Origin: a virus | Lineage: Duplodnaviria > Heunggongvirae > Uroviricota > Caudoviricetes | IMG/VR virus record: IMGVR_UViG_2630968701_000002 | DNA: 64,000 bases | Reading direction: 5' to 3' (one strand) | Shown: positions 46,455 to 47,230 of the stretch, one piece after another | Numbering within the stretch: position 1 is the first letter of the stretch | Layout of the letters: each line of letters opens with the position of its first letter | The notes under the pieces: generated by a model | What the model was told of the DNA's origin: nothing | Database searches by the model: none | Seen by the model: only the letters and a program-made list of their open reading frames with translations | Translations under genes and position numbers: made by a program

Positions 46455-47230
46455 TGATCTTCTCTCTGCTTCTTTTAAAGGAAACAGTCTTAAGATGATA
46501 TCAGTCTTGAGATTCCATCTCCCTGTTTGTATAAAAGAAAACACCTTCTTAAAAAAAGGAAACCTTTTGGCTAGGATCCCCAAGCTCGCGATTTCCTTAT
46601 CCTGTCTGTCTCGGTTCCTCTCCGGAACTCTCGGCCAGAGCAGGAGTGCAGGAAATATGAGCTTCCCCCCTTCCGTCCGCGAAAAAACAGTCCGATACTG
46701 CCGGATCATCTTTTGCAAAACGGGAAAGGGGAAGTAAAAACACGATATTGAAAGCCATCAGGCCGTCGCTATCGGCGAGGTTTCATTTACTTACCATCAT
46801 GCAATGCATCATGCAATGCATGGCAGTCACATGTTCCACCATAAGGTGCTCCGAAGTCCTGCCTTAAGACGAGCTAGATTGTGATTCTGAAACATATGCC
46901 CTCTGCTTCCACGACAAGAGCCATGAAAACAACAGGGACGGGCAACGCCGATTTCTGTGCATGATTGGGGACGCCACTCCCTTGGATACGCACTCAAACC
47001 AAAAAGTAAAGCGGTACGAATGCAGAGCAAGACCGCCACGATCTCACCGCAATTCCTCCCATCCTTGGCCTGCCACGACACAGTGTCCGGTATGGGAAAG
47101 GTTATTTTTAACTGATGTCCTCTCAACAGCACCAGGCTCTTCTGGGTTTTTCTATCATGCAGTTGTTTCAACAGATAACCTGGGCTTTCGCCTCTGATCC
47201 GTCTTTCTTCGTAATAAGAACATTCCGTTC
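46455..47230 (-). ncRNA. Candidate large structured non-coding RNA, class not identified
   Basis: About 50% GC against about 33% background; own promoter motif at 47237-47277; no RBS-led ORF; many helices (see findings). Ends are approximate. Confidence 0.65.

Follow-up and report, generated by a model that had tools for sequence, protein, structure and literature searches.

A G+C-rich non-coding cassette carried by a human-gut element lineage as a candidate gene for a large structured RNA

What may be encoded by a G+C-rich island in which no credible protein-coding frame is found? The question is raised by the 64,000-nt stretch of the IMG/VR virus record IMGVR_UViG_2630968701_000002 that was analysed here (hereafter, the window), whose mean G+C content is 34%. 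A sequence-only reading of this DNA, made without database searches, had described an island of about 50% G+C, and 200-nt windows across positions 46500-47200 were indeed at 0.46-0.545, compared to ~0.33 around. The island is one of only three stretches lying more than 2 standard deviations over the G+C mean of the window, and all the genes of at least 100 codons surrounding it are on the minus strand. It belongs to a discrete unit of 833 bp on the minus strand (window 47290-46458), the cassette, which contains a repeated promoter motif, a payload of ~680 nt (~50% G+C over a background of 33%) and two terminator-like hairpins. The reading that we prefer, to which a rough probability of 0.55 is given, is that the cassette is the gene of a large non-coding RNA of ~680 nt that folds and acts in trans, from a family not in Rfam and with its own promoter of the element type. 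The argument starts from what was directly observed, namely the anatomy of the cassette, its non-coding status, its strand-specific foldability, its uneven conservation, its mobility and its restriction to one lineage.

The homologues were gathered from ~50 loci fetched via spurious open reading frames (ORFs) and one exact-pattern scan, and the resulting alignment (A5) comprised 42 distinct natural variants. The cassette appeared at full length in ~50 loci. All the homologues were 92-100% identical to the window and came from human-gut assemblies of one element lineage, including one NCBI genome record that was 100% identical across the cassette (L028, assembly GCA_000876135.1). The metagenome pattern scan contributed 28 of the copies (92-99% identical), which came from human-gut or gut assemblies where the source was stated. 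One contig of a JGI metagenome (L060:515-544) matched the 21 specified bases of the pattern with otherwise no similarity to the island, and was taken as a chance hit. As for abundance, the index of the assembly collection has the PARP protein that flanks the cassette in the window in 2214 blocks and P0001, a frame overlapping the island, in 233 blocks with exactly the sequence of the window. Read along the minus strand, the order of the unit is an upstream terminator, a full copy of the promoter motif, the G+C-rich payload, terminator-like hairpins with a U-run and the promoter of the next gene, as follows:

47309-48775, minus strand: upstream gene, encoding a WGR-PARP protein of 488 amino acids with a PARP catalytic domain (Pfam)
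47279-47300, minus strand: intrinsic terminator of the WGR-PARP gene, a 9-bp stem and then a T-run (terminator scan)
47231-47278, minus strand: copy of the class-1 promoter-like motif, with a T-run, TATATGTGAAAAA, ~14 nt and AAATCTCTCATATCT; core at 47245-47237
46548-47230, minus strand: predicted non-coding transcript of ~680 nt, with promoter, terminator-like hairpins, no ORF, no Rfam match and a fold z of -3.46
46535-46581, minus strand: two terminator-like hairpins, GGGGAUCC...GGUUUCC with a U7 run (46581-46551) and AAGAAG...CUUCUU (46550-46535)
46400-46458, minus strand: class-2 promoter motif of the next gene with its conserved leader; the cassette ends here on its downstream side
44963-46375/46417, minus strand: next gene, of 470/484 amino acids, headed by the class-2 promoter motif

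Both edges of the cassette were defined by comparison with copies in other contexts, the homology beginning inside the terminator of the PARP gene at ~47290 (breaks at 47290/47287) and stopping downstream at 46458. The class-1 motif ahead of the payload was kept in every variant of the alignment, and the terminator-like hairpins were paired by RNAalifold, with the U/C changes of the variants retaining the pairs. The start and the end of the transcript are both predicted from these features. Thus, the structured unit with its own promoter proposed by the sequence-only reading stood as regards the absence of an ORF, the promoter, the terminators and the foldable strand, while its length should be set at ~680 nt (~47230 to 46550) and not at 770. 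Past the terminators, in the AT-rich spacer (46459-46534), a segment of ~30 nt was found duplicated in about a quarter of the variants (L021, L022, L042-L044, L046, L050, L057, L061, L067, L068 and L072).

The two promoter copies that had been placed at 47237 and 46431 are members of two classes of strongly conserved promoter-like motif sharing the core CTCATATTT, which occur at ~30 intergenic sites and precede nearly all the transcription units of the window. The class-1 motif is ~50 nt long; 12 or more of its copies in the window could be aligned, and BLAST located it at ~20 intergenic places. At least nine copies of the class-2 motif were found, each at the head of a protein gene, where a conserved leader (ATGACGA-AGAGAGAAA) and then a ribosome-binding site accompany it; the core of the copy before the next gene is at 46439-46431. 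Example sites are:

16540-16625, 27620-27705, 29730-29815 and 61118-61203: class-1 motif
12150-12260, 22515-22625, 48760-48870 and 55605-55715: class-2 motif

The cassette is non-coding. The only long frame, P0001 (161 codons, 46827-47312), starts in the end of the PARP gene and spans the terminator of that gene and the promoter of the cassette. Proteins corresponding to P0001 are predicted in many metagenomes; in their alignment, identical blocks alternate with unrelated blocks, and this alternation reveals frameshifts among the natural variants. In particular, non-singleton insertions or deletions of 1-2 nt were found at several sites of P0001 among the 42 variants (e.g. +C at ~47118, +/-T at ~47006 and +TA at ~46930). 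Because these common indels shift every long frame and no Pfam remnant was found, the cassette was considered not to encode a protein. The ten six-frame pieces of the island had no Pfam match at E ≤1, and the phmmer search of P0001 against 1.84 billion protein representatives returned only spurious ORFs of its own lineage. Furthermore, a scan for frames led by a Shine-Dalgarno sequence gave short frames only, the best being at 46842. The sequence-only reading had seen no ORF led by a ribosome-binding site, in agreement with the fact that no credible one was found, P0001 running through the terminator and being frameshifted; the protein-coding signature that it had named as a refutation was likewise not seen.

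Regarding foldability, the minimum free energy of the 680-nt minus strand was -238 kcal/mol, compared to -215 ± 6.7 for dinucleotide shuffles (z of -3.46), and none of the 100 shuffles was as stable. The plus strand gave a z of -1.57, and four coding stretches of equal length ranged from -0.5 to -1.6, while the own z figures of the folding tool were -4.3 and -2.9 (20 shuffles). Columns paired with a probability of at least 0.9 numbered 280 in the minus strand vs. 120 in the plus strand. According to these folding models, the transcribed strand is thermodynamically structured and the opposite strand is not. The long-range pairings disagreed among predictions and were regarded as unreliable. The local parts of the payload are given next, with the proportion of non-singleton polymorphic columns in the 42 variants, which was 11-12% for the terminator and tail:

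47041-47192, minus strand: variable 5′ domain; 22 of 152 columns polymorphic (14.5%)
46825-47040, minus strand: conserved central domain; 7 of 216 columns polymorphic (3.2%), with invariant runs of 68 and 65 nt
46795-46824, minus strand: tandem 12-nt repeat, with plus-strand unit CATCATGCAATG (repeat family D6)
46740-46776, minus strand: fast-evolving hairpin, with six changes and the sole compensatory change seen
46662-46735, minus strand: long G-U-rich stem, CUUCCCCUUUCCCG.../...CGGAAGGGGGGAAG; 1 of 74 columns polymorphic (1.4%)
46584-46661, minus strand: conserved 3′ hairpin domain; 2 of 78 columns polymorphic (2.6%), with an invariant run of 45 nt (46646-46602)

The 5′ domain would fold into a GNRA hairpin, GGC-GAAA-GCC (47192-47183), whose loop is GAAA or GGAA across the variants, and the hairpin CCCAUACC/GGAUGGG (47096-47058). 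In the central domain, four well-determined hairpins were predicted (47000-46950, 46936-46900, 46898-46828 with two inner hairpins, and CACC-UUAU-GGUG at 46848-46837), with pair probabilities of at least 0.9 by the partition function. The copy number of the 12-nt repeat differs among the variants, with one unit fewer or other length changes, and the pentamer UGCAU is enriched (z of 6.2). The long stem contains ~9 G-U pairs, for which the opposite strand would have A-C mismatches, so this stem exists on the minus strand only. Its tip is a terminator-like hairpin (46705-46691, terminator scan) and is followed by a U6 run (46687-46682). The promoter core recurs (CTCATATTT, 46661-46653) where the 5′ arm of the 3′ domain starts, and the domain includes the hairpin GUUCC-GGAGA-GGAAC (46628-46614), its helices having a probability of at least 0.9. 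The sequence-only reading gave helices that were confirmed at their coordinates, and most of them recur with a pair probability of at least 0.9.

Conservation along the payload is uneven. Polymorphic columns are ~six-fold rarer in the blocks 47040-46825 and 46735-46584 than in the 5′ domain. For 47240-47041, 29 of 200 columns were polymorphic, vs. 10 of 368 for the three conserved segments pooled (Fisher P-value of 3e−7). As a reference, the neighbouring gene of 470 amino acids had 11.3% of polymorphic third codon positions and 3.2% of second positions (in a smaller sample), the polymorphism of the conserved domains being thus at about the level of its second codon positions. The island differed by 5-7% in the long contigs that diverge most, in which the flanking genes differed by 9-11% at third positions. 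This pattern argues for purifying selection on ~370 nt.

The cassette is also mobile. Among the 25 classifiable loci coming from a pattern scan blind to the neighbours, the gene upstream of the cassette encoded DnaE (DNA polymerase III alpha) in 11, PARP in 7, a DUF2207 membrane protein in 4 and others in 3, while downstream it was followed by the 470-amino-acid gene, the SSB-RecJ pair or a SpaA-like gene. The commonest setting was between DnaE and SSB-RecJ, within an order (sigma-70-like, further genes, DnaE, SSB, RecJ, a 117-amino-acid gene and an S24 peptidase) conserved down to 50% DnaE identity. When the empty and filled sites were compared, the cassette was found to sit exactly between the terminator T-run and the T-run opening the SSB promoter. 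The cassette would so move by recombination at the repeated promoter/terminator junctions, as the protein cassettes appear to do.

Several results weigh against a functional RNA gene. To begin with, no relatives of the cassette were found outside its lineage by BLAST of the island and 20 kb around against the phage and plasmid collections, by a PARP-guided search of IMG/VR, by two exact core patterns in IMG/VR, or by a covariance model of the conserved central domain (R1) in 151 + 5 genomes, and BLAST in 401 Lachnospiraceae genomes and the five genomes with PARP relatives gave only short matches at chance level. Moreover, the covariation among homologues that the sequence-only reading had proposed as a check was not obtained. 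No statistical covariation appeared among the 42 variants, whose identity of 92-100% leaves low power, and a single compensatory pair was seen, A46770-U46747 changing to C-G in 11 of them (A5 columns 482:506). Using RNAalifold, the non-singleton polymorphisms kept or broke pairs at 20:1 in the minus strand, with 12:1 in the reverse complement, and single-sequence structures gave 22:15 and 15:8 in the minus strand and 24:9 in the plus strand. As the strand control matched, the apparent excess of kept pairs is a property of the method and was not counted as support. In a mosaic population, recombination or a recent sweep could likewise have lowered the diversity of the conserved blocks. Among the sequencing runs listed as containing the sequence, there was no RNA run. 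Finally, contigs with DnaE 84, 55 and 50% identical have a DnaE-SSB gap of 52-141 nt, with neither a G+C island nor similarity to the cassette, so the cassette is dispensable for the element family and a lineage-specific accessory. A fourth contig (DnaE 78%) gives no information, as it is cut off at the stop codon of DnaE, and in the PARP relatives the neighbours were not conserved and no island lay alongside. On these comparisons, the cassette would so be recent accessory cargo rather than part of the core replication machinery of the family.

The next question is whether the payload belongs to a catalogued RNA. No match was found at gathering thresholds when the whole 64-kb window was searched with cmscan against Rfam release 15 (4227 families), and in the region 46300-47400 at E ≤10 there were just eight hits, to unrelated small RNAs and at chance level. 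That the method was working is shown by a group II intron that the same search picked up in a related genome (L082:17372-19140, i.e. ~197372-199140 of G001:C1, with matches to domains 1-4 and 5-6), in the contig with the closest PARP relative. The membership in GOLLD, ROOL or OLE that had been suggested was not borne out, as no Rfam model of them matched the window or the island at the gathering threshold or at E ≤10 and ARAGORN found no tRNA genes in the 64-kb window; a new RNA class is possible. ROOL is frequently located near tRNA genes and in prophages, while the neighbours of the cassette are DnaE, PARP and DUF2207 genes. Other candidates were discarded as well. Group I and II introns had no match to catalytic-core models (e.g. 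group II domains 1-4 and 5-6) in the window, and RNase P, transfer-messenger RNA, signal recognition particle RNA, 6S and T-boxes were excluded as far as covariance models tell. A TnpB/IscB guide RNA (IS605-orfB, HEARO) was rejected with no TnpB domain in the ten six-frame pieces, no Rfam match, no similarity to TnpB-associated islands and edges that are promoter/terminator junctions, not the ends of an insertion sequence (IS). For a primer or origin of the ColE1 RNA II type, the cassette lacks a conserved association with the replication module, since DnaE relatives at 84, 55 and 50% have DnaE directly followed by SSB-RecJ and no cassette. For a CsrA-type sponge, 21 GGA motifs were counted vs. 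13 expected (z of 2.6), with no concentration in loops, and duplex energies pointed to no common target site for an antisense regulator acting on the conserved leaders of the cassettes. In addition, an ORF-free island of ~550 nt (49% G+C) was observed between AT-rich spacers in a Lachnospiraceae contig of 37% G+C (G001:C1:70420-70960, L076:10420-10960). Its sequence is unrelated to the cassette and had no Rfam match even at E ≤1, and it may be another uncatalogued RNA.

Regarding known systems, one of the closest is a large non-coding RNA of Firmicutes, ROOL (Rumen-Originating, Ornate, Large), which measures ~580 nt on average and is carried by prophages and megaplasmids (PMC5737381, PMC5643018). 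An abundant long non-coding RNA of 520 nt from the Lactobacillus salivarius megaplasmid, restricted to the species and not present in all strains (PMC5643018), was identified as ROOL in a note added in proof (PMC5737381). ROOL, GOLLD and OLE were recently shown to assemble into homo-oligomers made of RNA only, for a purpose yet to be found (PMC12286853), and GOLLD frequently has tRNA genes in its neighbourhood (PMC5737381). The cassette resembles ROOL in size, in its carriage by a Firmicutes mobile element, in its own expression unit (predicted here) and in having no assigned function, and it resembles the L. salivarius RNA in being limited to one species-level lineage and absent from some relatives. 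Unlike ROOL, it has no Rfam match even at E ≤10 and no tRNA genes nearby. With GOLLD, which is phage-borne, and OLE it shares the size class, a G+C content higher than that of an AT-rich host and the condition of a stand-alone RNA gene (predicted here), but no covariance model matches it and the window has no tRNA genes. OLE is associated with a conserved partner gene for a protein and with extremophiles; nothing of the kind was seen at the cassette. The omega RNA or reRNA of TnpB/IS605 elements is likewise G+C-rich, structured and ORF-free, and the cassette lies on the same strand and element as two other islands (51500-51840 and 59100-59526). However, it has no adjacent or decayed tnpB and no similarity to either island, it is three to four times longer, and it has its own promoter of the element type and promoter/terminator boundaries. 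Lastly, like ColE1 RNA II, the cassette would give a structured non-coding transcript of several hundred nt from its own promoter, and it is often in the replication module of an element that bears an RNase H-domain gene. In contrast to RNA II, it is absent from related replication modules, terminated and variable in location, and no antisense partner or origin signature was found.

These data were weighed against four other explanations. The cassette might be a transcribed relic, i.e. foreign non-coding or decayed DNA of higher G+C content, caught behind a promoter of the cassette array and devoid of function. Its confinement to one lineage, its absence from relatives with the same DnaE-SSB-RecJ synteny, and the lack of distant homologues and of covariation are what such a relic would show, and the inserted IS element with TnpB (51840-53069) demonstrates that foreign G+C-rich DNA does enter the element. 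We consider it unlikely nonetheless, as no protein or IS remnant was detectable, the complete cassette, promoter included, is retained across ~50 loci and no fewer than five flanking contexts, two of its blocks are ~six-fold less polymorphic than the rest and its folding excess is strand-specific. Rather less probable is that the payload holds two RNAs, one of ~545 nt ending at the hairpin 46705-46691 with its U6 run, and a small RNA of ~100 nt running from the core copy at 46661-46653 to the terminator at ~46551. A terminator-like site followed 20 nt on by CTCATATTT reproduces the order of every cassette junction, and this stretch of ~100 nt is the most conserved part (invariant at 46646-46602, with 2.6% polymorphic columns). 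Nevertheless, only the 9-nt core is in common, the T-rich or A-rich upstream parts of both promoter classes being replaced by G-rich sequence. The positions that are invariant across copies amount to ~CATATTT, a 7-mer that we estimate to be expected by chance in ~4% of 690-nt sequences. Moreover, the hairpin has only five pairs and lies, like the U-run, within the long stem.

It seems improbable that the RNA encodes a peptide or has a dual function. The short frame at 46842 (15-19 codons led by a ribosome-binding site, MVEHVT...) has a GGAG 6 nt ahead of its AUG, but its C-terminal half is frameshifted in 10 of the 42 variants and varies with the repeat number. The frame at 46895 (22 codons, MFQNHNLARLKAGLRSTLWWNM) is intact in 41 of the 42 variants, its one single-nucleotide polymorphism being synonymous, although its Shine-Dalgarno match is weak and 4 nt from the AUG. 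Both frames are inside the conserved central domain; still, conservation extends to ~370 nt beyond them, and peptides would leave the G+C richness and the fold unexplained. A cis-acting element for replication or transfer has the slightest chance of the four. It would serve the DnaE replisome as a primer or origin transcript resembling ColE1 RNA II, or else be a structured single-strand origin or promoter that comes into play after conjugative entry. The commonest context between DnaE and SSB-RecJ, the RNase H-domain protein encoded on the element (15767-16639), the G-run carried by the payload RNA (GGAAGGGGGGAAG), which could favour an RNA-DNA hybrid, and the direction of the RNA, the same as that of all surrounding genes, would suit it. 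Yet the replication modules of relatives with a DnaE-SSB gap of 52-141 nt and no cassette indicate that it is not the origin of the family, and the cassette varies in position and ends in terminators. Furthermore, there is no change of GC skew at the island, no iterons were found besides the one 12-nt tandem repeat, and the plus strand, the one that would serve as template or be transferred, folds only weakly.

Returning to the gene for a trans-acting RNA, from the above we infer transcription, the exact ends, the fold, the action in trans and any role. The cassette would be stand-alone accessory cargo of a giant mobile element in a human-gut Lachnospiraceae host. The own promoter type of the element would fire at ~47230, perhaps read by a sigma-70-like factor encoded on related contigs, and the RNA would fold into three domains, of which the 5′ one is variable and the other two (47040-46825 and 46735-46584) are conserved, before being released at the U-run terminator at ~46550. 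By analogy with ROOL and GOLLD, it may then act in trans, as RNA or as an RNA-protein particle, in the establishment or replication programme of the element. A more far-reaching version, which we put forward only tentatively, is that this is the founding member of a new class of large structured RNA, shuffled like a gene by giant gut mobile elements and forming an RNA-only or RNA-protein particle with a part in establishment, replication or counter-defence (as a decoy, a scaffold or a ROOL/GOLLD-like assembly).

As for the rest of the element, a sigma-70-like protein with regions 2 and 4 (most Pfam hits being weak) is encoded a few genes upstream of DnaE in related contigs. Judging from the sequence, it may be a candidate reader of the element-specific promoter motif. 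Many genes for the modification or repair of nucleic acids were also observed on the element, a set that fits a putative counter-defence or establishment arm. The coordinates are:

L084:1548-2402, L085:593-1411, L086:124-1230 and L087:1676-2497: sigma-70-like genes in related contigs
4768-5973: RtcB RNA ligase
15767-16639: RNase H-domain protein
40254-41294: nucleotidyltransferase
47309-48775: PARP
50004-51278: GNAT fusion
53232-53708: RadC

The TnpB gene (51840-53069, minus strand) has the OrfB_IS605 domain and a Cas12f1-like TNB domain (Pfam). Directly downstream of it lies a second G+C-rich island (51500-51840), presumably its guide (omega) RNA. The third G+C-rich stretch (59100-61109) comprises an ORF of 527 amino acids (59526-61109), with no Pfam or PHROG match, and ~400 nt located 3′ of it.

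Very few non-coding RNAs of bacteria are longer than 500 nt, and the known ones (ribosomal RNAs, group II introns, GOLLD, ROOL and OLE) have repeatedly revealed new RNA biology. Should the cassette turn out to be a relic, the G+C islands of this element would be a mixture of IS-borne RNAs and captured DNA. If it is the gene for a large structured RNA, an accessible new case would be available on a very common element of the human gut, and RNA genes would be handled there as shufflable, promoter-led cassettes beside the accessory protein genes (PARP, GNAT, Fic, RadC and methyltransferase).

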